Part shown: positions 22,201-61,801 of the stretch, piece after piece
Layout: each line of letters starts with the position of its first letter
How positions within the stretch are numbered: position 1 is the first letter of the stretch
IMG/VR virus record: IMGVR_UViG_3300017763_003980
Reading direction: 5' to 3' (one strand)
DNA length: 64,000 nucleotides
From: a virus
Taxonomy: Duplodnaviria; Caudoviricetes
Program-made: the position numbers and the translations under genes
Notes under the pieces: model-generated
What the model saw: the letters and a program-made list of their open reading frames with translations, nothing else
The model's database searches: none
What the model was told of the DNA's origin: nothing

Positions 22201-22810
22201 TCATGATTTAACCATAACACTCCAAAGCGGTACCGGAGACAACTTATCAGAACCAAGTAAAGGTCAGAATTTGCCAGGCATTATTTTTATAAATGGTGAA
22301 CGTATTGAATATTTTACTAAAAAAGATGATATTTTAGGACAGCTACGTAGAGGTACATTAGGTACAGGAGTTAAAGATATACATGAAGTTGGTTCAAAAG
22401 TTTATGACCAAAATATAAGCAAAACAATACCGTACAAAGATATGACAAGAAGTCAAAATTTCACAGGAGATGGCGTTGCTACAGAATTTACACTTGATTT
22501 AGATGCATTAACCTACAATGAATTTGAAGTTTTTGTAGCTGGTAAGAGATTAAGGAAAGTAAATTTAGAATCCTTCCAGCGTGTAAATGCACTTGATAGT
22601 CCAGAAGGTGATATTACACTACCGCCAGAGTTTAGGTATGATAGAGAAACACAAGTTTTAACGCTAGCTGAACCTCCGTTAGACAAAACTAATGTTACAG
22701 TAGTACAAAAAACAGGACAAATATGGACAAATATAGGTCAACCATTAGGAGAAGCTGAAAATTCAATAGCACGATTCTTACGAGCAGGAAGTTCGGCGCT
22801 ACCAGAATAA
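7289..22810 (+). CDS. Giant (5173 aa) multidomain baseplate/virion structural protein (gp7-like position)
   Basis: Single uninterrupted 15.5-kb ORF coupled to gp6 by a TAATG overlap. It contains CBM5/12-like repeats, FG-GAP/propeller-like repeats (FGSNF, LGESISISSDG, FGKKV, FGYAI, FGEKI), ITDSGRGY-type repeats and C-terminal beta-sandwich repeats (EFTADGTTKAYTLS, FTGDGVATEFTL). Confidence 0.8.
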   Translation: MAYDDNQNESPLPADGKVKKISTDFLPKFFRTEANRKFLQGTLDQLITPGVAEKVSGYIGRNTAKAFTPTDNYIGDISNDRTNYQLEPATVIKDNFDNVTFYKDYNDYVNQLGVFGSNNKNHSRLNNQETYAWNPNIDYDKFVNFREYYWLPNGPTTVPVRGQSKEIVSTYTVTTSDQTDNIAYVFNDGLTVNPTIKLYKGQTYRFEIDTPGHPIAFSISRTFTPGTAVLTAGSEGLRADGQFDGQLYGNNYDQGEYIVLPSSGSVTFDADENVSTLYPDGITKYGEEGEVLSVVYVEKGTIEFTVPLNAPDRLYYVSKNAIDTSGLIRIYDIEENSAINIDEEVLGKKTYKSANGVEFTNGMKVTFQGEVTPAKYATNLWYIEGVGDKISLIRDKDLIIPAAYTEDKLIPFDTDKFDELPFADSKAYAETKDYITINRASKDRNPWSRYNCWYHKEVVLASEKYNSLPETLDETTRAKRPIIEFEAGLKLNNAGVFAKDDVDLVDNFTKDVFSTIEGTAGYNIDGIDLADGMRVLFTADTDVLVNGKIYKVKFITIDNIRQISLIETSDTTPQDLECVLVTQGDSFAGTSFYYKTNKWVQAQQKTKTNQQPLFEVFDANKNSFSDETFYNSTTFPGTKIFSYKQGSGTPDVELGFPLSYRAINNSGDIVFNFCLLSDTFTYQDDTELYTQRIDTGYLKKYKNLTSFEYVNGFSKIPTSSKQLVINQYNVTDLENNNFSVEAYRKSGDLNDLKVIVYVDNILKLKSVDYEIDRINGVAIVRFYKDLLDGQFVKIKTDSNAEKDIGYYEFPYNLERNPLNDDITEFTLGEVIDHVDTMIEDIPTFKGVYPGRSNLRDSGETDHFGKRFVKHSGPINIANYHITNKNFNIIKALRHSKNEYSRFKRSFLEKAVTLGFDGPVKKHFDRILQDLNKDRVKTESFYFSDMLAYGDANRLEYTVLDSDTEIYPMTSAFTLGTLSEKSVNVYLNGIQLTHGKDYTFNSDGYAVITATKFVNDIIEIYEYENTDGSFIPATPTKSGLYPKYYPELIIDDSFVQEGTLETGPFKLYGRTEQTTKSYKGKVGWFYPLYTSKEEAIAADSDSSADTGTAHMHVFEGLSQVFWMPDTQMNHATVDDLSLEEYPRGVAMIRGHDGSYVKAYKDFRDELLLELERRIFNNIKVEYDINRLDINEFLGGEYRKSEFTRHEVNSTLLSDFIQWTRGIDKDYTVNDFYNINNSFTFNFSSAKTPLGNDVPGFWRGAYLHAYGTDRPNATPWEMLGFTMKPSWWDTTYGPAPYSGDNLVLWRDLEEGRIKEPGKAEVVNGKYARPGLTNHIPVDSQGRLKSLTKSNFAQGFLTRQGSNGFKFGDVAPVESAWRRSAEYPFAVLSAYLLNKPAKVMGLGFDVSRTKKNLANQWVYAETNKPIKLSSVKMPNTYNDEVRTLTCGLVNYIYNLVSSDILTLYSEYKSDLAVLTNQIGFKVGGFTDKTKFNLILDSRSPTQQVDRDGIFVPQESFKVFTNTSSPLTMAIYSGIAIEKAANGYIVRGYNNTVTHFEYYAPIIGTSKVNVSVGGISETTADFKANTFYAKGTIIQEERDFYRVTEDFTSGESFTTENVARLSELPEVGGRTAEFKRDFDKSQILKLNYGTRLATIQEVVDFILGYNDRLKDLGFDFNEFNSNTETVSNWSESCKEFMFWTTQGWASGTLIVLSPSANQVSFTRSFSVVDNLNDPFYDYSIFKADGQPLDTDFISYNRDGNSFVLETDDTDDGVYHTALPLVQKEHVVLLENKTSFSDIIYEPKSGYRQDRLKVSGYKTDEWNGGLNLPGFLYDEATITNWTQWKDYKIGEIVKYKQFYYVATVNISGTKSFEAKSWYQLSEKPEPELIANLDYKAGQFADFYDLDSDGFDKEQQKLAQHLVGYQKRQYLANIINDDISQYKFYRGYIADKGTMNSLTKLFESLATTNTETALDFYEEWAIQTGRYGATESEKEIRINLKQDSYTEAPQSFELINTLPDTNFENIYRILPNEMFDKPFDYTHEPFPTKFIPSKDEVIKTGGNVNEDDVDFLAGSIAELSLGDVNAAGHGDYIWVIETGKGTWNVYQVVPANVNVISARVRNDSLSTDGMRLIELTTDRYVDIRSDNKAPLLLQSDIIGIKDADEFKLSGMYAIEQDGIELNKITIKADITSNVTDFLEQSFPLVKLRTVRVPTLDFLTRQRYNFLTKQRIWVDNLDGDWAVLENNPVFRNEQTIQNPTEWDSTSQKFGSNFTVTNDNNNLFVTASGDSNGKVHYYRRTNEKNNFSLDATIQINSDDNLLNGSASKLGESISISSDGEYLVAGMPEATGVKTKFKGDFDKSITYTKGDIIKYRESLWKANREILPEIAQQPFTTFDSYVNLASVADGDSTTLQLLVAGDPGLANNMVDHILVRAPKDMYLGTSPGDIVNLYWNTRSYAFPTLDSYTPFNSQIPEITATFISQSHPIIHKVDHVLKIDTFVTLPSVGQTVTTNTGSGTVVYVGTRDQSAVIYIGDVNGIFSISGELFINEESFVGFYNYTDTANTNSSVDGFWYLNTGFSYSNNSVYYDTGRGLVYADVRLQTSSRPLNVYSNIQKSVGYIGAYVNLKDRASYITHLSYRGDPGGVEADQLSNKFVVRGAKEYTDVLNVGDQTEFRLYNLDNRIIDVESAGFSFDIFNKNQTVVDLWDGYIDFTFDEFDFSGNVFEPQVGDIISDVQFPNDGQGGLAITTSTTSTAEVMFYRRNFNSVRVYVKALSGDWGQLANIGKYSIQRNANASLRGDADVDRLMGTVSNVLNDIAVGTTTVGKLIVFEHSSNFPVVSNPEIVDEEYWFFNENTEQGISRLPNPPYSLNKDYRQVYNIPAESAGTAGPDNEGAVAIYRRTSDGNYTRLLVLVSEHRKANRGFGKKVKIVQKGDYYTLAISSEGLGTREDPGSIEFFRHGVRATDSFIGPYRPTEVYAIGDIVLFNDEYYKCIQVIATTISNISNPDVWENISWKSGKDQNYRGVWDNTYSYAKDSVVNYNNTLYSAKTNLAEGVAWSLDKWEAVSTKLDYTGVLPNTTANAFYGEDTFDPIQNITQFSQDFDISADGDVLITTSKQELTDSTRDIAVLVYREIDDKFLLDQTITEETTVDGFADKVSLHPAGRKIAVSRQLDDRSAIDQGSVLVYTQNSDGKFGTVVDSVKGITTPNQTLRPSQDEVSEKFGYAIDYSTDHLLISSLNGDQVIPTRFDTYEETLPANSPSDPSGLGSKYVLDMNSASKDFETTFDKEFTTFKNQKMDKGVVYVYETLGPNEVESEKFVYPLTQTTFGEKILAVGNHVYIGMPQQFGDDSTSPLVADTRGAVVDFRKNNNSKAWDKIRSSVVPADVEKIKGSFLYNKRNQQIITYVDFIDPVQGKVAGIAEAEIDFKTTYDPAFYNTGELADNNVDPNQHWAEKYVGKVWWNIGNARFAHSYQGTTNFQKNNWGKQLGDSIITVYEWVESPFLPETWDGLADTDAGLKRGISGVSLHGNTKYTTRLIYDSISKQFNSLYYFWVENKRTIPINKHRNLSIKQIASLIGDPQTQKYRYLSLFSKNKFMLVNCNDLITSDDVVLVIKYTNDSTAKQRQNTHSQYQILSKGLDTSVVNADIENKWFDSLIGFDKQKRPVPDMTIPVAGRYGVQNKPRQGMFVNKAEALKQFIERVNIVCKANLLTDEYDLSKLSLKEPLPTLISGEYDTKISNYSEIGFVSTSKVRPAKLTPVIQNGKIISVTITDSGRGYKTVPPLKLSGSGKNAEFKITIDTAGQISNVEVINQGSGYDQNTLIIVRRYTVLVEADSTVFNKWSLYSWNEVENNWFRRSIQDYDVTQFWNYIDWYATGYNQFTEIDDIIEGSYLLTSLENQVGSVVKINSIGAGGWLLLEKIADEDTEDYTVNYKTIGRQNGTVQFSDKLYDYAKNTVGFDNRSFDSYFYDSIPITELRTILNTIKDQIFTGRLAVEYNELFFASLRYVLAEQISADWLFKTSFVKAKHNLGPLYQDKTFNNNNLANYESYINEVKPYKTNVREFVSNYNNIEPTNTTVSDFDLQPEYDKLSKSIVTSNASVIDGKVVSPPGSSASYPRRHWLENNSYKVTEVVIADSGSGYTYPPTIKFTSNSGSGATAKAYLAYGKVSKIEIITKGNDYITSPTVVIEGPQTNAGTPAKATAILGDGVVRSPKIISKFDRVSGTVYYTALKEEFYATGSGDTTIYNLEWPMDLSSTKVKISIGKTNDTLIEQLRSKYTYKNIVDTSKTYARQQGQVVFSEPPAVGDIIRIEYYKPLSLLTAQDRINFAYNPTSGMFGKDLSQLMTGIDYGGVQVKSFEFDQPSGWDTEGWYTDNWDTYDNTYEDQIFTSDGSSTAVILDTPLENGIMYNFYKNGVRIDDPNYDASTEITNPTAITNSIIGDGTTRLLDLEEMGVRLLDNDIFIVRKTTSDGSVLPDADSYDTALSGGDLAYKTATGIKAEDIIVDGDGFVTPTTSGGPEELVPGQVLDTLDIKVFTRDSDGQGQIYSQSFIMTNNTTYNLGVIPRTAPAVIVKVANVILDSSQYTIDWNNNNVTLNTATPGAELNIIAMAQGVQKLLDFGQGVSTAGQSDYLTTVDWQTGVSVFVSVNGVATDVEIFNSEDSGAPIAKVGIRFKTPRTVSGEKIHYSVFSDKTKVNYSQVSKDEFTADGTTKAYTLSTTPFYAQPNEHNIIVKVGNRILNPGYNIQHTVEDNNRTYKIETFQQPVGANAASDMRVFVNGVEKFTPNEWRFDIANSAIILSDETGVNGDTVELFAITDGEYRVTGNVVTLDATPNDQDKIEIMQFSNHDLLGIERINYDVVNRTLLLSEEIQQQTKYNRLTVGEIPLRKQIVDAQYAWVSVNGELLTPSVDYYVTDDRMKIQLVKRPAKNDVIDIIHFSQNISTKKFAYRQFKDMLNRTHFKRLDKEASILRYPLTSHDLTITLQSGTGDNLSEPSKGQNLPGIIFINGERIEYFTKKDDILGQLRRGTLGTGVKDIHEVGSKVYDQNISKTIPYKDMTRSQNFTGDGVATEFTLDLDALTYNEFEVFVAGKRLRKVNLESFQRVNALDSPEGDITLPPEFRYDRETQVLTLAEPPLDKTNVTVVQKTGQIWTNIGQPLGEAENSIARFLRAGSSALPE

Positions 22811-46887: not shown

Positions 46888-48158
46888 TGTACGAAGAAAC
46901 AAAAAAAGAATTAGATAAGATTAGTCCTAGCTTTTGTATAGCAAAGTGGGCTAGAACTAATGTAAGAACCTATGAAGGCACATCATACAGTTGCCATCAC
47001 TGTAGACCTATAGTTACTCCCAAAGAAGATGTAGTAGCTAATTATGAAACTTTAACAAATAATGAAAAAGTAAAACAATACAGGCAACAGATGCTAAACG
47101 GTGAACGGCCAGAAGAGTGTGGCTACTGTTGGACTAGAGAAGATCAGGGCTTTACAAGTGATAGAATTATTAAAAGTCGTAAATTTATGAAATACCATCA
47201 TATAAACCCATATGATATTACTAAAGACTTAACACATGCTCCTGTACATTTAGATATTGCGTTTGATAGGACATGTAATTTTAAATGTTCATATTGTGGT
47301 CCTCAAAATAGCAGCCTTTGGGCAGAAGAAATAGCACAATATGGAGACATAAAAGGAGTACCTGCGTTTGCTGACAGAGAATCAATACCTAACAGAGAAG
47401 TAAATCCTTATAATGATGCTTTTTGGGAGTGGTGGGAAGCAGGTCTAAAGTATAGTTTACAACATTTAACTATTACCGGTGGCGAACCGCTATTGTCAAA
47501 AGAATTTTGGAAAGTATTAGATAAAGTTGAACAAGATGATTTAGGTATGACAGTTATGGTTAACACAAATCTATGCCCACCTGATAAAATATTCAACAAG
47601 TTTGTAAATAGAATACAAAACTGGGATCCTTTAAGGATGCGTATTTCCACAAGTATAGAATCAATGAGTAAAAAAGCTGAATACAGCAGGTTCGGATTAG
47701 ATTATAATAAGTTTATGAGTAATATGCATAGGATATTAACTGAAACTGATCTAAAAGTTGAGGTTAATCTTACAAATAATGCATTAAGTTTTACTTCGCT
47801 TACTGATCTAGTTCAAGAACTAACTAAATTTAAAATTAAATACGGAGAAAAAAGAGTAACAATGCATAGTAACGATGTTACTTATCCTCAACATTTAAAT
47901 TTACGCATACTTCCTAAAGAACTTAGAAATGCTGAAGTAATCAAGTTTAAAAGATTTATGAAAATTAATAAGAAATATTTTTCCGAATCAGAGAAATATA
48001 AGTTTATGCGTACATTAAAACTTGCACTAGTTGAATATGATGATCTACAAAAACACCGCGATGAATTTTTGATATTTATTGAACAATATGACAAAAGAAG
48101 AAATTTAAATTTTGATCAAACGTTTCCAGAAATAGCAAAATTTAAGGATAAGATATGA
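46887..48158 (+). CDS. Radical SAM enzyme with an N-terminal twitch-like Cys cluster, paralogue 2
   Basis: CNFKCSYC; ITGGEPL; N-terminal CIAKW...SCHHC...CGYCW. Confidence 0.88.
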   Translation: MYEETKKELDKISPSFCIAKWARTNVRTYEGTSYSCHHCRPIVTPKEDVVANYETLTNNEKVKQYRQQMLNGERPEECGYCWTREDQGFTSDRIIKSRKFMKYHHINPYDITKDLTHAPVHLDIAFDRTCNFKCSYCGPQNSSLWAEEIAQYGDIKGVPAFADRESIPNREVNPYNDAFWEWWEAGLKYSLQHLTITGGEPLLSKEFWKVLDKVEQDDLGMTVMVNTNLCPPDKIFNKFVNRIQNWDPLRMRISTSIESMSKKAEYSRFGLDYNKFMSNMHRILTETDLKVEVNLTNNALSFTSLTDLVQELTKFKIKYGEKRVTMHSNDVTYPQHLNLRILPKELRNAEVIKFKRFMKINKKYFSESEKYKFMRTLKLALVEYDDLQKHRDEFLIFIEQYDKRRNLNFDQTFPEIAKFKDKI

Positions 48159-49393
48159 ATAAAACTCCTTGGTGCATGGATCCGTTCATTCAAATGGCCC
48201 ATACTGCTGATGGGTTTTTTAGAGTATGTTGTATTGGAGAAGTACATAGAGAACGCACTGATCTTAATACTAAAGAAATGACTCCTTTGGAATACTGGAA
48301 CAGCGATGTTAGTAAACAGATTCGATCGGATATGTTAAAGCCTATAGAAGAATTTAGCGACATCACAAAATATGCATGTAGTCAATGTTTAAAAAATAAT
48401 AGAGATGGTGTACGCAGTCGCAGACAAACGGAAAATGTAAGGTACCAAGATAATAAAAAAGCAAAAATAAATGTTATAAAACATTTAAAAAATATTGATT
48501 ACACGTATGATGACTTACTATATGTAAATTTTAAAGTATTAGGAAATATTTGTAATTTAAAATGCGTAATGTGTAGTGCAAATGCAAGTAGTAAAATTGC
48601 TGCAGAAGCAAAACAGCATTACGGATTTCCTCGAGGATGGAGTGCAGGCGACAAAGCAGAACTAGAACCGTTTACTCCTGATACACGTAATGACTATTTT
48701 ACAGAATTACAAAAAATAATTGACAGTATTCCAAAATTTAATTTAGTCGGCGGCGAAAATTTAATACATCCTGATTTCCCTCGTCTGTTCCAAATGTTTA
48801 TAGACAGCCCAAATATCAGTAATATTGATATGCTAATTATTACCAATGGAACAATAGTACCGGATATTGTGCAAGACAATGCACATTTATTTAAAAGTAT
48901 GACTATACTAATAAGTATGGACGGTGTTTATGAAAGAGGTTCATATGTGCGTTCAGGACTCAATTGGAAAAAGTTTGATACTAACGTAAGAAAATTTGCT
49001 AGTAATCCTCATGTATTTTTAAGACTAGTGCCAGCAATACAAATGCTTAATGCAGGATATGTTAAAGAAATGCATGAATGGATAGAGTCTGTAGGCCTAG
49101 ATCCTAAGATGTCGATAGATTGGAATAATGTTGTTACATATCCTGAAACTTTACGTGCAATTAATTTACCTAAAGAAATAAAACAAGAATATATGCGTAA
49201 GATGATAGGACCTGATATAACACACCCGTCAATACGAGTAGTTTTCGATATACTAAAACAGCCTCAATATAGTCACAAAGAGTTCCTTGAGGGACTTAAA
49301 TACTTACGTAAATTAGATAAAATTCGGAACACAAATCTACTAGAACATTTTCCTGAGTTTGAGCAGTATATAGGAGATATAGATGATAACTAA
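48155..49393 (+). CDS. Radical SAM enzyme with an N-terminal twitch-like Cys cluster, paralogue 3
   Basis: CNLKCVMC; LVGGENL; N-terminal CMDPF...VCC...CSQC. Confidence 0.85.
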   Translation: MNKTPWCMDPFIQMAHTADGFFRVCCIGEVHRERTDLNTKEMTPLEYWNSDVSKQIRSDMLKPIEEFSDITKYACSQCLKNNRDGVRSRRQTENVRYQDNKKAKINVIKHLKNIDYTYDDLLYVNFKVLGNICNLKCVMCSANASSKIAAEAKQHYGFPRGWSAGDKAELEPFTPDTRNDYFTELQKIIDSIPKFNLVGGENLIHPDFPRLFQMFIDSPNISNIDMLIITNGTIVPDIVQDNAHLFKSMTILISMDGVYERGSYVRSGLNWKKFDTNVRKFASNPHVFLRLVPAIQMLNAGYVKEMHEWIESVGLDPKMSIDWNNVVTYPETLRAINLPKEIKQEYMRKMIGPDITHPSIRVVFDILKQPQYSHKEFLEGLKYLRKLDKIRNTNLLEHFPEFEQYIGDIDDN

Positions 49394-50105
49394 CGAAGAA
49401 AAAGCAGAACTAGCAAAGTTCAGCTATTTAGAAGCTTTTAGAGATGGTACATTACCTGCCCCTAAAATAATGGATTTAGTTTGCGAAAGTCAGTTAGCTG
49501 CACTAGGTGATTTTGTACCATTAAAAGTAAAGATAAAATTAGGTGAATTTAGAAACGAAATAAAAAAATATGACGGTAAATGGGTGCCGTATCTGCCGCG
49601 AGAAGGTGAATTAAATGATAGACAAGGACTTAACTATATAGGGTTAGAAGGAGACACACCTTTTGATAGCATTAGTCTTCCTGAAGCAAGAAAACGCACA
49701 GGGAAAAAATTAGTAGAAATTGACTTTAGTACTAAAACACAACTATATAATGATTTACCAAGTCTGAAAGCAATTACAGATGTTTGGCCAGACCCTTGTC
49801 GTTGTACACTAGTAAAAGTTAATAAAGGTGGCTGGTTTCCTTATCATCGTGATAGTGTGTTATTAAATAGAAGAACATTTAGAATAATTGCATTTCTTAC
49901 AAATACTGGCGCAGAGTGTTATCAATGGGAGCATGACTATACAATGCGTACAATTGAAGAAGGAAGATGCTATTATGTAAACACACAATTAGCTCATAGA
50001 ACCCATAGTTATGTACCCGATAGCATACACCTAGTAATGAATATACCAAAAACACTTGAAAATGTTTTTAGGGTAATGGACATACTAAAGCACGGCGAAA
50101 CATAA
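49383..50105 (+). CDS. Fe(II)/2-oxoglutarate dioxygenase (AspH-like)
   Basis: GGWFPYHRD (HxD), VNTQLAHRT (distal His), IHLVMNI. Confidence 0.7.
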   Translation: MITNEEKAELAKFSYLEAFRDGTLPAPKIMDLVCESQLAALGDFVPLKVKIKLGEFRNEIKKYDGKWVPYLPREGELNDRQGLNYIGLEGDTPFDSISLPEARKRTGKKLVEIDFSTKTQLYNDLPSLKAITDVWPDPCRCTLVKVNKGGWFPYHRDSVLLNRRTFRIIAFLTNTGAECYQWEHDYTMRTIEEGRCYYVNTQLAHRTHSYVPDSIHLVMNIPKTLENVFRVMDILKHGET

Positions 50106-51881: not shown

Positions 51882-51898
51882 AACTTAAAAGATTGATT

Positions 51899-51906
51899 GA
51901 TAAATA
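51899..51906 (+). promoter_or_regulatory. T4-like late promoter GATAAATA, 5 nt before the desaturase ATG
   Basis: GATAAATA-TATAT-ATG(51912). Confidence 0.6.
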
Positions 51907-51911
51907 TATAT

Positions 51912-52682
51912 ATGATAAAAGATATATTTAGATCTAACACACAGCTTTTTCCGGTAGGGCAATTAGTAAGTACAATCACGTTGCTTTATATGCTATATCT
52001 TACAGCACTAGGCTCGGTTGCTCCACAATGGTGGTTAGCAAGTCTTGCGATGTATTTTTGCACAGGTTGTCTAGGAATTACTATTACATATCATAGATAT
52101 CTAACACATAGAAGCTTTAAGTATCGTTACAAATGGATGGAATATGTATTTTCGTTTTTTGGAGCGATGGGAGGTACAGGTAGTTCAATAGGTTGGGTAG
52201 CTGTGCATAATGAACATCATAAGCACACAGATAAAGATGGTGATCCTCATTCACCACACTTAGGTTTTTGGAATGTTATAATTCCAAGATATACATTTGA
52301 TATGAATAAATTTGCTGTAAGACACTTAGTAACTAACAAGTTTCATTTAGCACTACATAATTATTACTACTTAATAATGCTAGCTTGGATAGGACTACTA
52401 TATATAATAGGTGGCGCTAACTTATCTATATTTGTTGGTGTTATTCCGGTCGCAATTCAAATATGGGCAAGTGTAATGAGTAACTATGGTAATCATACTT
52501 GGGGATATAGGAATTTTGAGACTAAAGAAGAAAGCAAAAATACATGGTGGCTTGCAATATTAACTTTCGGAGAAGGATGGCACAATAATCATCATGCTAA
52601 ACCTGGTAGATGGAACTTTTCTCATAAATGGTGGGAAATAGATATGAGTGCTTGGGTTATACGATTATTAAAAACATCTTAA
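51912..52682 (+). CDS. Membrane fatty-acid (delta-9-type acyl-CoA/acyl-lipid) desaturase
   Basis: Three His boxes, HRYLTH, HNEHH and HNNHH (GEGWHNNHH); HTDKDGDPHSP; hydrophobic segments. Confidence 0.9.
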   Translation: MIKDIFRSNTQLFPVGQLVSTITLLYMLYLTALGSVAPQWWLASLAMYFCTGCLGITITYHRYLTHRSFKYRYKWMEYVFSFFGAMGGTGSSIGWVAVHNEHHKHTDKDGDPHSPHLGFWNVIIPRYTFDMNKFAVRHLVTNKFHLALHNYYYLIMLAWIGLLYIIGGANLSIFVGVIPVAIQIWASVMSNYGNHTWGYRNFETKEESKNTWWLAILTFGEGWHNNHHAKPGRWNFSHKWWEIDMSAWVIRLLKTS

Positions 52683-52688
52683 TTAATA

Positions 52689-54152
52689 ATGTATCATGTT
52701 ATTATCTTTACAGGTATACTTCAAAGTCCCAGTTCTATCTTTAAACCCCTCGGCGCATATCGTATACGCACAGAACTAGAATCTCAAGGTTATAATGTAA
52801 AAGTTATAGACCATTATCATAATTTAACCGAAGAACATATACAAAAAGCATTTGAAAAATATGTTGGAAAAGAAACATTATGGGTCGGTTTTAGCACTAC
52901 CTTTCTAAATACAACAACTTTACTTGCAGACAGATCTCATTTTTATATGAGATTAAGAAAAAAATATAATGTTCCTATAGTTATTGGCGGCGCAAAAGCT
53001 ATGGTAGAATTTTTGCCATGGGCTGACATTTTCATTACTGGATATGCTGATGATGCAGTTGTATCTGTAACTAATCATTTAGCACAAAAAGGTAGCACTC
53101 CTAAATGGAAAGATTACAAAGGTAAAAAAATTATTGACAGCAATCATGAATATGATAGAAAAGATTTATCTAACATAGGAGTAGTTTGGAAAGCAGAAGA
53201 TGGTATAAGTCCAACTCAAGCACTACCTATGGAAATAGCTAGAGGTTGTATTTTTAATTGTGCGTTTTGTAATTTTCCGTTGAATAATAAATCTAAATTT
53301 GATTATGTTCGAGTAAAAGAAGATATGACAAACGAGTTTTTACGTAACTACGAACAATTCGGTACTACTTACTATTGTTTTATGGATGATACATATAATG
53401 ATAGCATGAAAAAATTAGAATTAATGCATGATGTAATAACTAATTTACCTTTCAAAATTAAGTTCGATACATATATTAAACCAGAATTATTAGCAACATG
53501 GCCCGACCAAGCTGATCTTTTAGTAGAAACTGGACTAGTAGGAGCAAGCTTAGGACTTGAAACACTTAACAGAGATGCAAGACAAGCTATCCAAAAGGGC
53601 AAGAATATAGAAAAAGTATTAGAATCTATTGATAAACTTAAAGAAAAGAATAACGGACAAGTAAAAATACAATGTAATATGATTGTAGGCCTTCCGCATG
53701 AATCAGCTCAAAGTATTTGGAAATCTCACGAACAAATTATTAATAATAAAAGCATTGATTGGTGGAACTGGTATCCATTACAAATACATTCAAAAGATCA
53801 TCATGAATATCATTCTCCTATCGATAGAAATCCAGAAAAGTTTGGCTACAAAATAAGTCAAACAAAATTAATAAAAAATAATAGGGTAGACACTAACTAT
53901 TGGCTTACAGACTGGAATAATGAACATATGAATTCTGACATGGCAGGAATGTTATCTGTGAAGTTGCGAAGTATGGCTCAACAACACGTTAAAGTAGCAG
54001 GATGGAACTGTAGTAGTTTTGAAAGTCTAGGATTAGACTTAGATGAACATTACAGTACGCATGAAGGATTAGTGCAAAATATGCCTATTGAAGATATGAA
54101 AATAAAAAAACAAAAAATAGTAGACGACTACATTCACAATGTAATAATGTAA
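52689..54152 (+). CDS. Cobalamin-binding (class B-like) radical SAM enzyme
   Basis: N-terminal PLGAYRIRTELESQGYNVKVID B12-domain-like segment; IARGCIFNCAFC triad; FMDDT; SLGLET; MIVGLP. Confidence 0.8.
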   Translation: MYHVIIFTGILQSPSSIFKPLGAYRIRTELESQGYNVKVIDHYHNLTEEHIQKAFEKYVGKETLWVGFSTTFLNTTTLLADRSHFYMRLRKKYNVPIVIGGAKAMVEFLPWADIFITGYADDAVVSVTNHLAQKGSTPKWKDYKGKKIIDSNHEYDRKDLSNIGVVWKAEDGISPTQALPMEIARGCIFNCAFCNFPLNNKSKFDYVRVKEDMTNEFLRNYEQFGTTYYCFMDDTYNDSMKKLELMHDVITNLPFKIKFDTYIKPELLATWPDQADLLVETGLVGASLGLETLNRDARQAIQKGKNIEKVLESIDKLKEKNNGQVKIQCNMIVGLPHESAQSIWKSHEQIINNKSIDWWNWYPLQIHSKDHHEYHSPIDRNPEKFGYKISQTKLIKNNRVDTNYWLTDWNNEHMNSDMAGMLSVKLRSMAQQHVKVAGWNCSSFESLGLDLDEHYSTHEGLVQNMPIEDMKIKKQKIVDDYIHNVIM

Positions 54153-55443: not shown

Positions 55444-56118
55444 TTATTTCTTTCTACCAAATATTCTTATTTGTACTCTAGGTGAAAATATTTCTGTTGT
55501 ACAGTGCGGCAAACTATCGTCGAAGTGCCAGCATTTATATTTTGATTCGTCTACTTCAAACATTTCATTGCCTACTCTATACTGTAAGTGGCCGCCTCCG
55601 TCAGAAACATTTAGCGTGATAGCAACACCGCCATTTTTAAAGTATAACAAATTATCTCTATGTCTAGCATCGGCATGTACTATACCTTTGCTAGGTGGAG
55701 TTTGGCCTACAAGCCTAACACAACTAATGTATTCTAAATTAAATTTATTAACAATGTCAATCAAGCTTTGTGGCGCATCATCTTTCCAAGTCCATGCAGT
55801 ATCATATACATGCCATATAGGACTTCTTCCTCTAAATGTTTCCAAGTAACATGTATTTGAAGTTTCTGGTATACCCGGTATATGTGTGAAGTTATAGTTT
55901 ACAAATGTTTTATATTTGTTTTCTACTAAGTTACGATTGTCATCATAATGAGTTACATCATCGTACTTTTCAAAATAACCATCTTTGTCATAATTACTTC
56001 GTCCGTCAGTGTAAATAACTGTAGCAAGAAAGCTTTCGTCAAACATATTTGTTGACATTAGATCGTTATAAAGGCTTTGTTGATCAAAGTCAACATCTAT
56101 AGGTTCAAAAGCATTCAT
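55444..56118 (-). CDS. Fe(II)/2-oxoglutarate dioxygenase (AspH-like)
   Basis: GIVHAD (HxD); WHFDDSLPHC; RVQIRIFG. Start set at ATG56118 (MNAFEP), because the longer ORF runs antisense over the next gene. Confidence 0.65.
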   Translation of the reverse strand: MNAFEPIDVDFDQQSLYNDLMSTNMFDESFLATVIYTDGRSNYDKDGYFEKYDDVTHYDDNRNLVENKYKTFVNYNFTHIPGIPETSNTCYLETFRGRSPIWHVYDTAWTWKDDAPQSLIDIVNKFNLEYISCVRLVGQTPPSKGIVHADARHRDNLLYFKNGGVAITLNVSDGGGHLQYRVGNEMFEVDESKYKCWHFDDSLPHCTTEIFSPRVQIRIFGRKK

Positions 56119-56123
56119 AATAA

Positions 56124-56131
56124 TACTTATC
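56124..56131 (-). promoter_or_regulatory. Late promoter variant GATAAGTA, 5 nt before ATG56118
   Basis: The minus strand reads GATAAGTA-TTATT-ATG. Confidence 0.5.
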
Positions 56132-56142
56132 TGGAAGTCTTT

Positions 56143-57018
56143 ATGTCTATAAACTATCTGACACACAATAATTATTTTACTACATCTGGTCACGGAAAAG
56201 ACTGGACAGTACATTTAAAATCAGTTACACAAACGCCTAATTCTTGGTTTACTGAAAGTATAAGGTCGGCACAACTAATTAAAGAATCTGCAGATAGTCC
56301 TTTAGTGCTATTATTCAGCGGTGGACTAGATAGTGAATACATGCTTAATATTTTTAGACATGCTGGAATAGATTTTAAAGTTGCAATTATTAGCTATGGT
56401 GATTATAACATACACGACAATAAGCATGCATTCGAATATTGCAAAGCACACGGTATTGAACCTATAGTTATAGATATAGATATGGATTGGTTTATAAACA
56501 GCGGGAAAATAATTGAAATAGCTAATTTAGCTAAATGCTGTGCTTACCAAATTCCTAGTATTATGCACGGAATATCACAAATAGACGGCACAGTTATAAT
56601 GGCCAACGGAGAACCATATGTAAAAAACTTTGATGGAGATTGGCGCTGGGAAGAAACTGAACGTGTAAACAGCTATATGAATTGGTTTTCTTTGTTGCAT
56701 CTTGAAGGCACTCCAGATTTTCTAAGATACACTCCAGAAATGACAGTAAGTTTTTTAATGGAACCTAGAGTAATACAGCTAGTAAATAATGAACATCCTG
56801 GCAAGCTTAGTACTCGTACAAGTAAACATATGATATATACCCAGCACTTAAAAATGTCTAAACGAGCAAAATTTACAGGTTGGGAAAAACTAGAAAAACT
56901 TCCAATAATGCAACATGAATTATTTAAAGAATTTGATTTATTGAAAGAAAAGTATAATGGAGTTTTTGAACTAGGTTATAACGACCTTGTTGATGAGCTG
57001 TTAAAGTACGGAACCTGA
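56143..57018 (+). CDS. PP-loop (adenine nucleotide alpha-hydrolase; QueC/AsnB-like) protein
   Basis: LVLLFSGGLDSEY PP-loop; start at ATG56143 (MSINYL). Confidence 0.7.
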   Translation: MSINYLTHNNYFTTSGHGKDWTVHLKSVTQTPNSWFTESIRSAQLIKESADSPLVLLFSGGLDSEYMLNIFRHAGIDFKVAIISYGDYNIHDNKHAFEYCKAHGIEPIVIDIDMDWFINSGKIIEIANLAKCCAYQIPSIMHGISQIDGTVIMANGEPYVKNFDGDWRWEETERVNSYMNWFSLLHLEGTPDFLRYTPEMTVSFLMEPRVIQLVNNEHPGKLSTRTSKHMIYTQHLKMSKRAKFTGWEKLEKLPIMQHELFKEFDLLKEKYNGVFELGYNDLVDELLKYGT

Positions 57019-57414
57019 GACACCAGATCCATTTTCGTAGTTAGGATCTAATTCTGTTTTCCTTGCATGTTCTACATACGTTTCATCTCGTTCAGCAGCA
57101 AAAGTAGCAAATTCATCAAACGTTATATCTTCTACAATTGTGTCTACGTGCCCTGTTGCTGATTCTAGATAAGCACGATGAGGAGCAAAATTACTTACTG
57201 ATGTTTCCGAGTCTAAAATAAACACACAATTAATATTTTCGCCTTCGTGTTCATAATTTCTAAACCAAATGTCACCGTTTTCAGTCATAGTTTTTAGGCC
57301 ATTAAACATATTGGCATATGCTGTTTTGTCATTATCTAATTCATCAATAATTTCAGTAACAAATTGTGTAATACGTCTTCCATTATGCGGATATCTAATA
57401 GTGACTTTTTTCAT
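57001..57414 (-). CDS. Acidic 137-aa hypothetical protein with its own late promoter and strong SD
   Basis: GATAAATA (57440-57433) and AAGGAG upstream of ATG57414; no enzyme motif. Confidence 0.75.
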   Translation of the reverse strand: MKKVTIRYPHNGRRITQFVTEIIDELDNDKTAYANMFNGLKTMTENGDIWFRNYEHEGENINCVFILDSETSVSNFAPHRAYLESATGHVDTIVEDITFDEFATFAAERDETYVEHARKTELDPNYENGSGVSGSVL

Positions 57415-57454: not shown

Positions 57455-58153
57455 ATGTTAAACAAATTAGGATATGAAATATTAAGTAATGCATTCGATC
57501 CAACTGCATTACTTTCTGCGAGTAATGATGTGCTAGAAAAAAGAACTCAATCGTTTATATACGAAAATGATGGAAGTATAAGAAGTGTATTCGCACCACA
57601 TTGGTATAACAAGGATGTGAAAGATTTTGTATACGATAATCCAGCAATAGCTAATGTAAAAGAAGTATTAGTTGATGATATTTATGTACATCAAGTACAC
57701 TTTAATTATAAGCTAGCAGGGGTCGGTGGCGAGTATGCATGGCACAGTGATTATACATATTGGCATCATTATGACGGTATGCCAAATCCAGATGCTATTA
57801 GTGTATTGTATCTTTTAGATGATATGACTAGTATAAATGGGCCACTAGAAGTATTAGAAGGTAGTCATCTGGATCCTGTTGAAGAACCACCAAAAGGCAA
57901 CTGGACTATAAAGCATAATAGCACAGAGATACCTAATAATACACCGTCTAAGAACGCATATAAGCGTCATACAGTAACAGGCAAAGCTGGGGATATCATA
58001 TTGATGCATGCAAATTTAAAGCATGCTAGCACGGCAAATAAGAGCCATAAAAATAGAAAAGTGCTATTTGTATGCTATAATACGGTAAAAAACGCCACGA
58101 CAGGCGCCGTAAGACCTGATTATATTACACTAAAAGATTTTACGCCTGTTTAA
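57455..58153 (+). CDS. PhyH/EctD-like Fe(II)/2OG hydroxylase
   Basis: NYK...YAWHSDYTYWHHYDGMP closely resembles the ectoine hydroxylase signature FxWHSDFETWHxEDGMP but with FET changed to YTY; NGPLEVLEGSH; GDIILMHANLKHAS; R-x-V. Confidence 0.8.
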   Translation: MLNKLGYEILSNAFDPTALLSASNDVLEKRTQSFIYENDGSIRSVFAPHWYNKDVKDFVYDNPAIANVKEVLVDDIYVHQVHFNYKLAGVGGEYAWHSDYTYWHHYDGMPNPDAISVLYLLDDMTSINGPLEVLEGSHLDPVEEPPKGNWTIKHNSTEIPNNTPSKNAYKRHTVTGKAGDIILMHANLKHASTANKSHKNRKVLFVCYNTVKNATTGAVRPDYITLKDFTPV

Positions 58154-59285
58154 CTACGTTGATGTGTGCTAGTACGTTTTTCCACTTTAACTCGGCATCT
58201 AAGAGCCTTTTATCTGTAGTTATAGCGTAACCATTTAATCCGACTAGCATATCCAAACGTCTAAGATATTGTTGTGAATTAGGCATGGATAGTTCATTAT
58301 ATTCAGCACCTTCCTTCATGCTTATATTGTATTTTCCTTTTTCAAGATTGAAGTGTCTGAATACTACAGCTTTGTCTAGTTGTACTCTAAGGTCTGATTT
58401 GCATGTAATACTATCCATTACAATTCTATTGTAATCACAGTCTGCTGAATATTTTATTATAGTTTGTCCACTAGTGCTTAACCTTGGACTAAAATCTACT
58501 AGATAAGGTACTTCATCTCTAACAACAAAGTCAGCCATAAAAGGACCATTATCGTATCCTATGCTTTCGCACATTATTCTGCAATATTCTTTTATATCTG
58601 ATTGTACTGGTGTGCTAGATTTACTAGGCCATGTGAATCCTGTTTCTGCTCTATATGGAAGATCACTTATTTCAATATCATATATACAGTCTAAAATAAA
58701 TTTCCCATTTACTATTCTGCCCGATACACTTACTGTTGGTCCTTCTATATATTCTTGGAATATATAACCTGCATCTAAATCATTATAGTGTATGTCATCT
58801 AAAAAATAACGGTATTGACTCCAATTTTCAAGAACCTTTATACCGATGCCGCCTGTACCGTTTGCAGGTTTTGCTACTACAGGGAATGTTTTACGTAAAG
58901 ATGTGTGAGTCATTGGTACTGGTATACCAATATTGTAAGCATGTGCAGTATAATTTTCTTTGTTTGATAGTATATTACATTGTTCTTTTGTGATACCGAC
59001 TAGGTCGTGTATGTAAGGAAGCAACATGTCGTTATATAAGGGAAATATATAATCTATATTATTTTCATTTATAATTTTACGTAACTGATTAGCAAGGTCT
59101 GATCTATCTTTAGCTTTAATAGCATAGTGTTCTATACCGTCAGGAACACTAGGTATCATTTTATCTAGCAATGGAAATTGAGAGTTAGTATTTGCTTGCC
59201 AAGTACATAGTTTGTAATTTGTTAGTTCTTGTAGGGTATACCTTAAATTATTGCTTTGGTAATTTATAATTACTTTAGGCTCCAT
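58140..59285 (-). CDS. ATP-grasp ligase (L-amino-acid-ligase-like)
   Basis: FPVVAKPANGTGGIGI; FQEYIEG; GPFMADF...YLVDFSPRLS. Confidence 0.85.
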   Translation of the reverse strand: MEPKVIINYQSNNLRYTLQELTNYKLCTWQANTNSQFPLLDKMIPSVPDGIEHYAIKAKDRSDLANQLRKIINENNIDYIFPLYNDMLLPYIHDLVGITKEQCNILSNKENYTAHAYNIGIPVPMTHTSLRKTFPVVAKPANGTGGIGIKVLENWSQYRYFLDDIHYNDLDAGYIFQEYIEGPTVSVSGRIVNGKFILDCIYDIEISDLPYRAETGFTWPSKSSTPVQSDIKEYCRIMCESIGYDNGPFMADFVVRDEVPYLVDFSPRLSTSGQTIIKYSADCDYNRIVMDSITCKSDLRVQLDKAVVFRHFNLEKGKYNISMKEGAEYNELSMPNSQQYLRRLDMLVGLNGYAITTDKRLLDAELKWKNVLAHINVVKQA

Positions 59286-59895
59286 AAGTAATTTTATCCC
59301 TCATAATAGTATTGGTATACTTTATTTTCATAGTAATAAATCTTATAGTAGAATCATATGGTAAGGGTTTGTTGCCTAAGCAATAGTCATACAACTTATT
59401 ACCAGTTAAATGGCCAGCTTTGACAAAAGCAGCATCTGTAACATTATATTTTTCTTCATATATTGAAGCATACTTCTTACCATACTTTGAAACATCTAAG
59501 CCTTGTACATTATGTGTATTTCTTTCTTTGTTTGCTCTTTCAATGTCTTCACTGCGTACCCAAAAAAATCCCCATTTGCCTCGAGACTCACATTCATTTA
59601 ATTGGAATTGCATTACTTTCAAAATGTTTCTAAAATTAGCAAAATGGCTTTGGTCTTTTCTTGCCAGTAATGTATCACATAACACCCACGGCATATTTGG
59701 TAAATCTTCGCCTGCAACAATTGCTTGTATTTCTTTATTTTTTAATACAGCATAAATGTGTCTATTAGGTTCTATAAATTTTATATTTTGCCAATGAAAA
59801 TCGTTCTGTAAATTATGTGATTTAATTTGGTCGTTTATAAAATTAAAGAATAAATCTTTATGATCAGGCGTTAATTTGATACATTCATCAATCAT
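59275..59895 (-). CDS. Hypothetical protein, possibly GNAT-like
   Basis: IYAVLKNKEIQAIVAG...WVLCDTLLAR resembles the GNAT beta3-beta4 region; overlaps both neighbours. Confidence 0.4.
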   Translation of the reverse strand: MIDECIKLTPDHKDLFFNFINDQIKSHNLQNDFHWQNIKFIEPNRHIYAVLKNKEIQAIVAGEDLPNMPWVLCDTLLARKDQSHFANFRNILKVMQFQLNECESRGKWGFFWVRSEDIERANKERNTHNVQGLDVSKYGKKYASIYEEKYNVTDAAFVKAGHLTGNKLYDYCLGNKPLPYDSTIRFITMKIKYTNTIMRDKITYGA

Positions 59896-60232
59896 AGTTT
59901 ATAGTCTTTTCAATAGTATTGTACTTATTTGTGTATATTACTGTAGCTCCATCAAATTGAAAAGAAGTAGTATAACTAAGGACTACACATGGATCTCCTA
60001 TTTCGCCTAATCTTGCACCACCGCCGTTTAGTTCAAACACACCTTTGTTTCCTGGAATTACATATGTAGTCCAACGGTCACCGGTATTCATATTTACAAT
60101 ATCAACTTTTTGATACGGATCAAGATCAACTTTAGACATTAAATCACGACAGATAGTTACACTACCATCGTAGTCTAACGATTTATCAGTAACATGAATA
60201 TTTTGAATTTTAGATTGGATATACTCTCTCAT
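59888..60232 (-). CDS. panD: Aspartate 1-decarboxylase (pyruvoyl-dependent)
   Basis: SKI (Lys8), YDGSVT self-cleavage site Gly23-Ser24, DRWTTYVI (Arg53, Tyr57), LNGGGAR; 114 aa. Confidence 0.9.
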   Translation of the reverse strand: MREYIQSKIQNIHVTDKSLDYDGSVTICRDLMSKVDLDPYQKVDIVNMNTGDRWTTYVIPGNKGVFELNGGGARLGEIGDPCVVLSYTTSFQFDGATVIYTNKYNTIEKTINYD

Positions 60233-60238
60233 AGTACT

Positions 60239-60267
60239 ATTGTACTATAAAAAATTTGTGTTGTCAA
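60239..60267 (-). promoter_or_regulatory. Near-consensus sigma70 promoter giving a leaderless panD mRNA
   Basis: The minus strand reads TTGACA-N17-TACAAT-AGTACT-ATG. Confidence 0.8.
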
Positions 60268-60271
60268 CCTA

Positions 60272-61801
60272 TTAGTTTAAGTCTACCCAAGCTGAGCCAG
60301 TATAGCCTTGGAATTTAGTGCCAGTACTATTAAAGATTATCATACCTGCAGCTGGTGTTGTTACAGCCGCTGACCTTGCAGTATCGTCAGCAACTACTTT
60401 AAGCTGGATTGCTCCACTAAATGATGCTACAGAATCTGTTTGTGCAATTTGTAGCACTACAGTTTGATCGCCATTTGCTGCTGAATTGTATAATTCAATA
60501 TTTGTTGGTATTCTGTTTGCCTCTGGAGCTGCCGAAGCAAGGAATCTAATACCTCCTGAGGCCCTATAAGCTGTACCGTTATATCCAGCTGCTGCATATG
60601 CTCCGAGTTGATCACCCGATTGTACTGCTGTTGGTGCAGCCTTTGTACCTCTAGATCTTAATGCACCATATGTACTTCCGTAGCCTGCATCAGAAGCATG
60701 AAATGTTCTTATTGTTGTTGTACCTTGTGTGACAGCGTCATTATAAACACCAAGTGTTCTGTTGTTGCCTGTGTCTGTAACACCGCCAACTTGTGAACTT
60801 CTGCCTAATACTATCGATCCAGCAGTATTTTCAGTAGTGATTGTAAAAACATTACTTTCAGTATTTTGCTCTAAGAACATTGTATTCTTACTAGTAGCTG
60901 AAGTTAGTTTAATATTGCCAGCTAGTACGCCTAATTGTGTACTAACTTGTCCAGTAATCTTATTGTTAATACCATCTACAAGTAATGAACTATCTTCACC
61001 AAACACACTACCGCTCATAGTACCAAGTAATTGACCATTTACAGTACCGTTAAATACTGCATTAAAACTATCTAATATCTTAGACGAGTCATCAGTTGAG
61101 CTGAATATATCACCTTGTATATCACCTAACCATTGGCCTGTAGCTTTATCAAATACCTTCCTTAAACCAAGATCAAAAATGTCACCTTGGAAATTACCAA
61201 TAATATCACCGGTAAACAATTTAGTAGTTGGATTATATGCTGTTGTTCCATCACCGGCTTCGATGGTCATATTTTTAACAGTGCTAGTACTTGTATCAAC
61301 TAGCTGGGTGCCATCAAGTTTGTATAAATCTCCGCCATATACATCGCCCATAAGTCTATTATTATCATGATCAACTAATAAACTACTATTGTTTCCTACA
61401 ATACTTAATCTAATCTGTGAGTCTTTTAATTGTTCAACTTTAAAGTTACTTCCATCATGTATCAGGATCTGACCCCAACCCGGGCCACCATCTGGATATA
61501 TTACATCGTCATGATTATTTAAATTGCCTAGTGTTGCACCTGCAGGGTTTACTGCTGTCCAATAGTTGTCGCTTGAAGACCATGCTAAAACTTGCCCATC
61601 ACTAATGCTACCCAGTGTAACATCATTTAAATCATTTAGTGATGATGCGCCACCGCCGCTTCCTTGTACTACAACACCGCCAGCAGTTGTACCATCACCA
61701 ACATATAACGACTTTGTATCAGTTGTGTAGATAAGTTCGCCCGCTGCTGGTGTAATAAGCTGACGCTCAGCGTTGGTACCTCGTCTTAGCCTTAATGCCA
61801 T
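60272..61801 (-). CDS. Fibre-like virion protein with an Mtd_N/hyaluronidase-type N-terminal domain
   Basis: MALRLRRGT..ER..ITPAAGELIYTTDTKSLYVGDG; LNDLNDV...DGQVLAW spacer; repeated SSLLVD..NN units; C-terminal AGMIIFNSTGTKFQGY. Confidence 0.7.
   Translation of the reverse strand: MALRLRRGTNAERQLITPAAGELIYTTDTKSLYVGDGTTAGGVVVQGSGGGASSLNDLNDVTLGSISDGQVLAWSSSDNYWTAVNPAGATLGNLNNHDDVIYPDGGPGWGQILIHDGSNFKVEQLKDSQIRLSIVGNNSSLLVDHDNNRLMGDVYGGDLYKLDGTQLVDTSTSTVKNMTIEAGDGTTAYNPTTKLFTGDIIGNFQGDIFDLGLRKVFDKATGQWLGDIQGDIFSSTDDSSKILDSFNAVFNGTVNGQLLGTMSGSVFGEDSSLLVDGINNKITGQVSTQLGVLAGNIKLTSATSKNTMFLEQNTESNVFTITTENTAGSIVLGRSSQVGGVTDTGNNRTLGVYNDAVTQGTTTIRTFHASDAGYGSTYGALRSRGTKAAPTAVQSGDQLGAYAAAGYNGTAYRASGGIRFLASAAPEANRIPTNIELYNSAANGDQTVVLQIAQTDSVASFSGAIQLKVVADDTARSAAVTTPAAGMIIFNSTGTKFQGYTGSAWVDLN

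Follow-up and report, generated by a model that had tools for sequence, protein, structure and literature searches.

A conserved panD, GNAT-fold and ATP-grasp operon in marine jumbo phages, with a candidate role in beta-alanyl amide synthesis

The IMG/VR virus record IMGVR_UViG_3300017763_003980 carries a compact three-gene operon on the minus strand of the 64,000 nt of low-GC (approximately 33%) phage DNA analysed here, hereafter the window, whose positions are used for all coordinates. The operon measures 2.1 kb and encodes three soluble proteins: PanD, a predicted pyruvoyl-dependent aspartate 1-decarboxylase of 114 amino acids (59888..60232); a 206-amino-acid protein with a divergent GNAT fold, hereafter protein X (59275..59895); and a 381-amino-acid predicted ATP-grasp amide ligase resembling L-amino-acid ligases (58140..59285). 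PanD and X overlap by 8 nt, and X and the ligase by 11 nt. A promoter with the sequence TTGACA-17-TACAAT (60239..60267, minus strand) lies before panD and matches the sigma70 consensus at 11 of 12 positions. From the other side, a gene for a PhyH-family, EctD-like Fe(II)/2-oxoglutarate dioxygenase (57455..58153, plus strand) converges on the operon and overlaps the ligase gene tail to tail by 14 nt. Each part of this layout, the three overlapping genes, the near-consensus promoter and the convergent hydroxylase, agrees with what an earlier note had read from the sequence. After the ligase stop, inside the 3′ end of the PhyH gene, a hairpin followed by a T run (58095..58112, minus strand) is the single terminator-like site in the region; the terminator call is weak because the number of such sites is no greater than expected by chance.

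PanD belongs to the Asp_decarbox family (Pfam PF02261, E = 3e-28, 98.5 bits with a cut-off of 25) and scores 80.3 bits with the stricter TIGR00223 equivalog model, under its cut-off of 106. When solved PanDs and eight phage orthologues are aligned, Lys8, Tyr21, Gly23-Ser24, Arg53, Thr56, Tyr57 and Asn69 are invariant; they are the equivalents of catalytic Lys9, Tyr22, Arg54, Thr57, Tyr58 and Asn72 and of the Gly-Ser self-cleavage site, and they include all of the residues that the earlier note had called intact (Lys8, Gly23-Ser24, Arg53 and Tyr57). Gln10 stands in place of the usual His11. Given its family, catalytic residues and cleavage site, the protein is predicted to self-cleave and to decarboxylate aspartate, and its substrate may be a 3-substituted aspartate, as with CrpG-type homologues. 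The nearest PanDs by sequence are the Francisella and Mycobacterium structures, which match more strongly than E. coli chains. PanD is the most conserved of the three proteins, with 59–73% identity across relatives in which the ligase retains 41–48% and X 19–44%.

The ligase matches Pfam ATP-grasp_3 (E = 1e-12, 48.8 bits with a cut-off of 23.2), and its AlphaFold2 model, with a predicted local distance difference test (pLDDT) score of 86.5, has a three-domain ATP-grasp fold. The top Foldseek match to this model is 3vot, the enzyme BL00235 (E = 6e-24, TM 0.78), followed by BacD/YwfE and RizA, with biotin carboxylases and PurT/PurK ranking behind these L-amino-acid ligases. A profile of 20 orthologues compared with all PDB sequences also places the L-amino-acid ligase BL00235 first (E = 4e-10). 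Residues K139, D252, D264 and R268, at the ATP, Mg and catalytic Arg positions, are invariant among the orthologues, and D264 and R268 align with the E-x-x-x-R motif of BL00235. In sequence profile and in fold alike, the ligase is closest to the dipeptide-forming L-amino-acid ligases. It scores 17.9 bits with the NCBIfam DdaF model, which has a cut-off of 840, and BacD is not among the NCBIfam matches listed; in Pfam, no LAL_C2 domain was found in it at E values up to 0.1. Beta-alanine is a candidate substrate, as discussed below.

More distant relatives of the ligase were sought with a profile among 1.84 billion representatives, which gave 2,520 matches, all of them unnamed. One distant homologue, P0238, is fused to GNAT and LAL_C2 domains and aligns with the ligase family at 98.5% in hhalign, and another is fused to a PseG-like sugar enzyme. 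A 28%-identical ATP-grasp protein in another phage (L023:8969-14196) lies 1.5 kb from a tail-fibre gene of the Mtd_N type and is found there, away from any PanD or X, beside a TctC-like binding protein and two phosphatases. On phage-like contigs of 350–381 kb, a further distant homologue (L027/L028:8118-19613) sits within a lipid-type tailoring cluster with an acyl carrier protein, three to four FA_desaturase genes, an FA_hydroxylase, an LpxO-like hydroxylase, B12-radical SAM enzymes, a Rieske oxygenase and glycosyltransferases; no PanD occurs among the genes called for this cluster.

Protein X has no match in Pfam, NCBIfam or PHROGs, and a comparison with PHROGs matched none of the operon proteins. 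Among 13 X orthologues, no GNAT model is significant, and the sole GNAT match is that of one member at E = 0.044. The AlphaFold2 model built from the 13 orthologues (pLDDT 87.6) has a GNAT fold, which matches PDB GNATs in Foldseek (E = 1.4e-6, probability 1.00) and, in VIA, gives Z scores of up to 12.6 over 146 residues with RimI, EctA, Gcn5 and many others. Its structural neighbours in the ESM Atlas are GNATs carrying PF00583. To judge by the model, X is a divergent GNAT-fold protein that represents a new GNAT-fold family; the fold proposed for the middle gene in the earlier note is thus upheld by structure prediction, where the sequence families are blind to it. X has no clear Q/RxxGxG/A acyl-CoA pyrophosphate loop; the loop after strand 4 reads RKDQSH and is variable among orthologues. 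A complex prediction for PanD and for the ligase with X as partner scored 0.00, below the mark, a value with no bearing on binding.

The three genes are inherited together. Single-protein pattern scans of IMG/VR matched nothing, and an alignment-based scan succeeded, with ligase homologues in metagenomes forming 90 clusters at 81–87%, 72–74% and 41–48% identity. We read the gene contexts of 23 loci on marine jumbo-phage contigs of up to 335 kb, locating PanD, X and the ligase with hidden Markov models and counting the loci with enough upstream sequence. All 21 of these loci contain the three genes in one fixed order, even at a ligase identity of 41–48%, which within this lineage bears out the pairing of panD with ATP-grasp genes that the earlier note had proposed to look for in large phages. 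The conserved frame consists of an Mtd_N fibre gene, the promoter with PanD, a variable insert, X with the ligase, the convergent PhyH gene, an acidic protein of 130 amino acids, a PP-loop protein and three further conserved genes. Wherever a related locus extends far enough, the fibre gene is found upstream of the PanD operon, and the PhyH gene converges on the operon in all relatives. X adjoins the ligase throughout, usually overlapping it, and up to six genes separate X from PanD.

The insert between PanD and X is the changing part of the cassette. It can hold a 190-amino-acid protein with a PHID motif, one or two TauD-family oxygenases, one or two FA_desaturase-family proteins with two to four hydrophobic segments and His boxes, a MoaA/SPASM-like radical SAM enzyme, a flavin halogenase with an adenylating enzyme, a 4HBT-like protein, or sulfotransferases. 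Several relatives carry a Sulfotransfer_2 gene, of a carbohydrate-type family, before PanD. The minimal three-gene form is found in the window and in a diverged sublineage (L016/L017/L022).

The lineage is widespread in the sea. At least 11 studies have seawater or viral metagenome runs that contain near-identical DNA. A direct DNA search gave no match in the isolated-phage collection. In a scan of 185,579 species genomes, the only match to the ligase alignment was a phage contig in a Neomarinimicrobiota metagenome-assembled genome. This contig, PBPT01000016.1 (335,231 bp), is a jumbo-phage contig with the cassette that is filed in a Candidatus Neomarinimicrobiota assembly; its placement there is probably a binning artefact and possibly a hint of the host.

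Conservation also distinguishes the promoter. Promoter-like sites in the region are as numerous as expected from shuffled sequence, and the site at 60267–60239 scores highest among them. Of 16 distinct relatives, nearly all keep it before PanD in position and sequence, also where a sulfotransferase gene stands between the fibre gene and PanD, and because of this conservation we regard it as more than a chance match, despite the shuffle-level number of sites. The −10 hexamer ends 6 nt from the PanD ATG with no Shine–Dalgarno sequence, and equivalent sites are seen in loci L001–L022. Given this spacing and the missing Shine–Dalgarno sequence, the PanD operon mRNA is probably leaderless across the lineage. 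RNA libraries of three studies yield contigs that match parts of the operon, fibre gene and 130-amino-acid gene at 99% identity or more. Being contigs, and with DNA carry-over possible, they are compatible with transcription and do not prove it, and they show neither strand nor start site; the uncovered parts of the region in these runs carry no meaning.

The neighbours of the operon include two conserved candidate enzymes. The PhyH protein matches Pfam PhyH (E = 3.8e-24, 86.6 bits with a cut-off of 22) and the ectoine hydroxylase model TIGR02408 at E = 8.6e-35 and 120.4 bits, below the cut-off of 336.5; by these scores it is a PhyH-family, EctD-like protein and, by the equivalog cut-off, not EctD. 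Its stretch YAWHSDYTYWHHYDGMP is one that we take to resemble the EctD signature. Farther along, a PP-loop ATP pyrophosphatase with an SGGLDS motif (56077..57018, plus strand), which probably begins at the ATG near 56143, occurs as a conserved gene in all relatives and is an amidotransferase candidate. In NCBIfam it matches the Asn synthase model at E = 1e-3 only, and its matches to QueC, AsnB, ArgG and TilS are weak and confined to the PP-loop motif. We considered a QueC role, with the ligase amidating 7-carboxy-7-deazaguanine (CDG), and found no support for it: the match covers the PP-loop motif only, and no C-terminal cysteine cluster was seen in the translation. Between the two genes lies the acidic protein of approximately 130 amino acids (57001..57414, minus strand, isoelectric point 4.6), which has no Pfam, PHROG or NCBIfam match under E = 0.01 and no match in the Atlas. 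Its N-terminal 100 residues are conserved and its C-terminal tail varies or is absent between phages; it was considered as an acceptor of the LysW type or of the type of ribosomally synthesized and post-translationally modified peptides, but it has no conserved acceptor residue and is left unassigned.

On the promoter side, the gene at 60272..61801 (minus strand) encodes a tail-fibre-like protein with an Mtd_N domain (Pfam, E = 2.4e-11), and the baseplate and tail genes of the window comprise a gp5/VgrG-like hub, gp25, a collar-domain fibre and an ORF of 5,173 amino acids. The hub is approximately 31% identical to that of PA5oct-type jumbo myoviruses, and the 5,173-amino-acid protein is a single open reading frame at 7289–22810, between the baseplate and fibre genes. 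The window includes a glycan-synthesis island, with sugar-nucleotide genes at 41–46 kb, and carries genes of the UDP-sugar dehydrogenase, DegT aminotransferase, hexapeptide acetyltransferase and radical SAM types. At 51897–54152, an FA_desaturase-family membrane protein (E = 1e-19) stands beside a B12-binding radical SAM enzyme of 487 amino acids, so that lipid-type chemistry is present in the island with the sugar-nucleotide genes; the same pair adjoins the cassette in relatives too.

No panB, panC or panE was found among the window open reading frames scanned with Pfam, as the earlier note had reported. The 335-kb sister contig, a near-complete genome, has one PanD, no PanB and, for PanC, an 18-bit sub-threshold fragment only; one acyl carrier protein (G001:C57:62478-62675) is encoded 90 kb away. 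Among isolated phages, a clear PanD is found only in the Rhodococcus/Gordonia phage Jace, at 49.6% identity. Jace (47591-49811) and three metagenomic siphophage contigs (loci including L025:6727-9048 and L026:258-2378) share a second phage PanD module, whose PanDs, at 46–54% identity, are the nearest found outside the lineage and in which a P-loop (ABC-like) ATPase–GNAT fusion, PanD and a CoA-transferase-III-like protein follow one another just upstream of terminase genes, near ParB_N/methylase or DUF932 genes. The 'ATP binding protein' of Jace was considered as an ATP-grasp enzyme and rejected, as it is the P-loop ATPase–GNAT fusion; its gp88 is CoA-transferase-like and not X. The earlier note had held that phage panD genes found mostly away from ATP-grasp neighbours, or with panB or panC, would speak against the pairing. 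By this standard the pairing comes through only in part, as the Jace-type group does lack an ATP-grasp gene; no panB or panC is found among its annotated neighbours. This second module may serve a different pathway that uses beta-alanine.

The genes are strictly co-inherited and translationally coupled, they have a conserved promoter to themselves, and panB and panC are lacking; together these features indicate that PanD most likely feeds the adjacent ligase rather than coenzyme A (CoA) synthesis. The earlier note had made this claim on the window sequence, and the functional link it proposed is strengthened by the unbroken synteny, by the absence of panB, and of any panC over the cut-off, from the 335-kb contig and by the L-amino-acid-ligase-like nature of the ligase; the substrate, the acceptor and a product shared by all of the enzymes stay at the level of prediction. 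What the cassette makes is less certain. We see about an even chance that the cassette is dedicated to producing beta-alanine and ligating it into an N-acyl beta-alanyl amide. We favour such a product because the relatives of the ligase condense free amino acids and because the GNAT-fold, PP-loop and EctD-like neighbours fit the logic of N-acetylglutaminylglutamine amide (NAGGN) synthesis. The inserted genes point the same way, being small-molecule or lipid tailoring enzymes, some of them membrane proteins, as do the GNAT fold of X, the high conservation of PanD and the fusion of the ligase homologue P0238 to GNAT and LAL_C2 domains.

The gene families, folds and gene order described above can be arranged into a pathway, in which each substrate is predicted. 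The operon would act as a self-contained module transcribed by host RNA polymerase. PanD would convert L-aspartate to beta-alanine, and the ATP-grasp enzyme would form an acyl phosphate from a carboxylate and then an amide, with beta-alanine, as synteny suggests, as one of the partners. X, nearly always translationally coupled to the ligase, would next transfer an acetyl or fatty acyl group onto the free amine, and the EctD-like dioxygenase and the PP-loop amidotransferase-like protein would finish the product, predicted to be an N-acyl beta-alanyl amide that is either free or lipid-like. X and the hydroxylase may act on the same product, and the acceptor could be an amino acid, a lipid, a glycan or a protein. 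Sister phages would vary the product through their inserted TauD, radical SAM, membrane desaturase, halogenase with adenylating enzyme, or sulfotransferase genes. In relatives with membrane desaturase-family inserts, these inserts suggest a lipid-like acyl group.

Several observations weigh against an N-acyl beta-alanyl amide. The predicted substrates are assigned from gene neighbourhood. X may not be an acyltransferase, given its degenerate acetyl-CoA loop and its lack of a GNAT sequence-family match, and the GNAT domain of P0238 is not alignable to X. X and the ligase have no NCBIfam match to the Ngg or AsnO families of NAGGN synthesis. The remaining points fit a glycan target: the operon comes directly after a tail-fibre gene and next to the glycan-synthesis island, some relatives carry carbohydrate-type sulfotransferases, and one distant ligase homologue is the fusion to a PseG-like enzyme.

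Such a target is the basis of the alternative that survives best, a serious rival, although we think it unlikely. Here, the cassette would decorate a macromolecule rather than make a free metabolite. The ligase would link beta-alanine through an amide either to a uronic acid or amino sugar in a glycan made by the phage or to a protein of the virion, for example the neighbouring fibre; capping of the amine would fall to the GNAT, and the tailoring genes would diversify the surface. ATP-grasp amidoligases that amidate capsule glucuronate are known from Campylobacter. The invariable fibre gene before the operon, the Mtd_N fibre gene near the 28%-identical ligase of the other phage, the sugar-nucleotide, acetyltransferase and radical SAM genes of the window and the Sulfotransfer_2 genes before PanD, in addition to the PseG-like fusion, would all be accounted for. 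However, the closest solved relatives of the ligase use free amino acids, and the membrane desaturases, halogenase and adenylating enzyme in the operons of relatives are a better fit to small-molecule or lipid chemistry. A sigma70 promoter of its own also sets the operon apart from late structural genes.

A bolder form of the N-acyl amide reading, which we consider rather unlikely, is that marine jumbo phages carry a hypervariable natural-product cassette, whose constant core makes a beta-alanine-derived N-acyl dipeptide or lipoamide, whose swappable tailoring genes diversify it and whose product acts on the host or on competitors. If so, the output could be an antimetabolite, like the dipeptides bacilysin and tabtoxin, which are products of L-amino-acid ligases, or a membrane lipid remodeller, and the cassette would be the first virus-encoded pathway of such a type.

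The two remaining alternatives concern PanD itself. X could be a PanZ/PanM-like GNAT-fold activator or regulator of PanD, so that the core would comprise PanD, its activator and the ligase. E. coli PanZ, in the chain 4cry_B taken from its complex with PanD, is among the structural matches of X (Z = 10.6, 123 of 127 residues, 14% identity) and has, at 2.5 Å, the lowest root-mean-square deviation of the rows listed; X lacks a clear acetyl-CoA loop, and PanD also travels with a GNAT domain in the second, unrelated phage group. Ordinary GNATs, however, score equally well or better by the dozen (Z = 10.3–12.6), X is tied to the ligase and can lie up to six genes from PanD, a distant ligase homologue carries its own GNAT fusion, and the phage PanD is nearer to the Francisella and Mycobacterium structures than to E. 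coli chains. PanZ/PanM is not known outside enterobacteria and their relatives. On balance, an activator role for X is quite improbable. Least probable of all, and in our view very unlikely, is that PanD is an auxiliary metabolic gene for host pantothenate and CoA, with the ATP-grasp protein either unrelated or a non-orthologous pantothenate synthetase joining host pantoate to beta-alanine: supplying beta-alanine for CoA is the textbook role of PanD, a GNAT would use acyl-CoA, and the absence of panB, panE and panC from the phage is not decisive because the pathway would rely on the host copies, but PanD never stands alone in the lineage, being always accompanied by X and the ligase with non-pantothenate tailoring inserts between, and the 335-kb sister contig has neither PanB nor a PanC over the cut-off.

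The families of these enzymes are known. Their combination as a conserved, diversifying phage cassette is undescribed in the literature searched, in which nothing relevant on a phage PanD with an ATP-grasp enzyme was found. An auxiliary gene in a phage usually supplies one enzyme that supplements host metabolism. On the reading favoured here, of N-acyl beta-alanyl amide synthesis, a widespread ocean phage lineage would keep a small complete pathway of precursor supply, amide ligation and acylation, with genes for hydroxylation and amidation conserved beside it. The change of tailoring genes from strain to strain is a pattern known from natural-product or surface-antigen diversification. The identity of the product would tell whether phages make metabolites, lipids or virion decorations of their own from beta-alanine, and it would give functions to a new GNAT-fold family and to a branch of L-amino-acid-ligase-like enzymes that is still uncharacterised. 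With its 2.1 kb and three soluble proteins, the cassette is small enough to be tested directly by expression in E. coli.

Among known systems, the L-amino-acid ligases (BL00235 of Bacillus licheniformis, 3VOT; BacD/YwfE of bacilysin synthesis; and RizA) share the three-domain ATP-grasp fold and the aligned catalytic Arg and Mg-ligand positions with the phage ligase. They are 13–16% identical to it, and its scores are far below the NCBIfam cut-offs for BacD and DdaF. Unlike theirs, its gene is phage-borne and invariably accompanied by those of PanD and a GNAT-fold partner, and the search for an LAL_C2 domain found none in the enzyme. The ATP-grasp enzyme carnosine synthase (CARNS1) activates beta-alanine and forms a beta-alanyl amide. 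We saw no specific sequence or structure similarity between CARNS1 and the phage ligase, and CARNS1 is an animal enzyme that is not linked to PanD.

Two other systems place PanD beside a GNAT domain. In the PanD–PanZ (PanM) complex of E. coli (PDB 4CRY), the partner has 127 amino acids as opposed to the 206 of X, shares no sequence similarity with X and goes with PanD, whereas X is linked to the ligase. The Jace module (gp86–88) and its siphophage counterparts likewise combine a phage PanD with a GNAT domain and an ATP-using enzyme, but there these are a P-loop ATPase–GNAT fusion, a CoA-transferase-III-like protein takes part, and the neighbours are terminase genes instead of a fibre gene.

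In NAGGN synthesis, encoded by PA3459–PA3461 of P. aeruginosa, Ngg acetylates and forms the peptide bond, and AsnO, an enzyme of the Asn-synthetase type, then amidates the product (PMC8070244). The phage cassette brings together a similar set, with a GNAT-fold protein, an ATP-grasp ligase and a conserved PP-loop protein lying side by side. It differs in that the phage encodes its proteins separately, with no fusion, that a glutaminase domain is missing from the PP-loop protein and that PanD would supply the amino acid. The parallel is one of analogy only, because no NCBIfam match links the phage proteins to the Ngg family; read in that way, NAGGN synthesis, together with the dipeptide-ligase pathways, offers the closest working model for the cassette.

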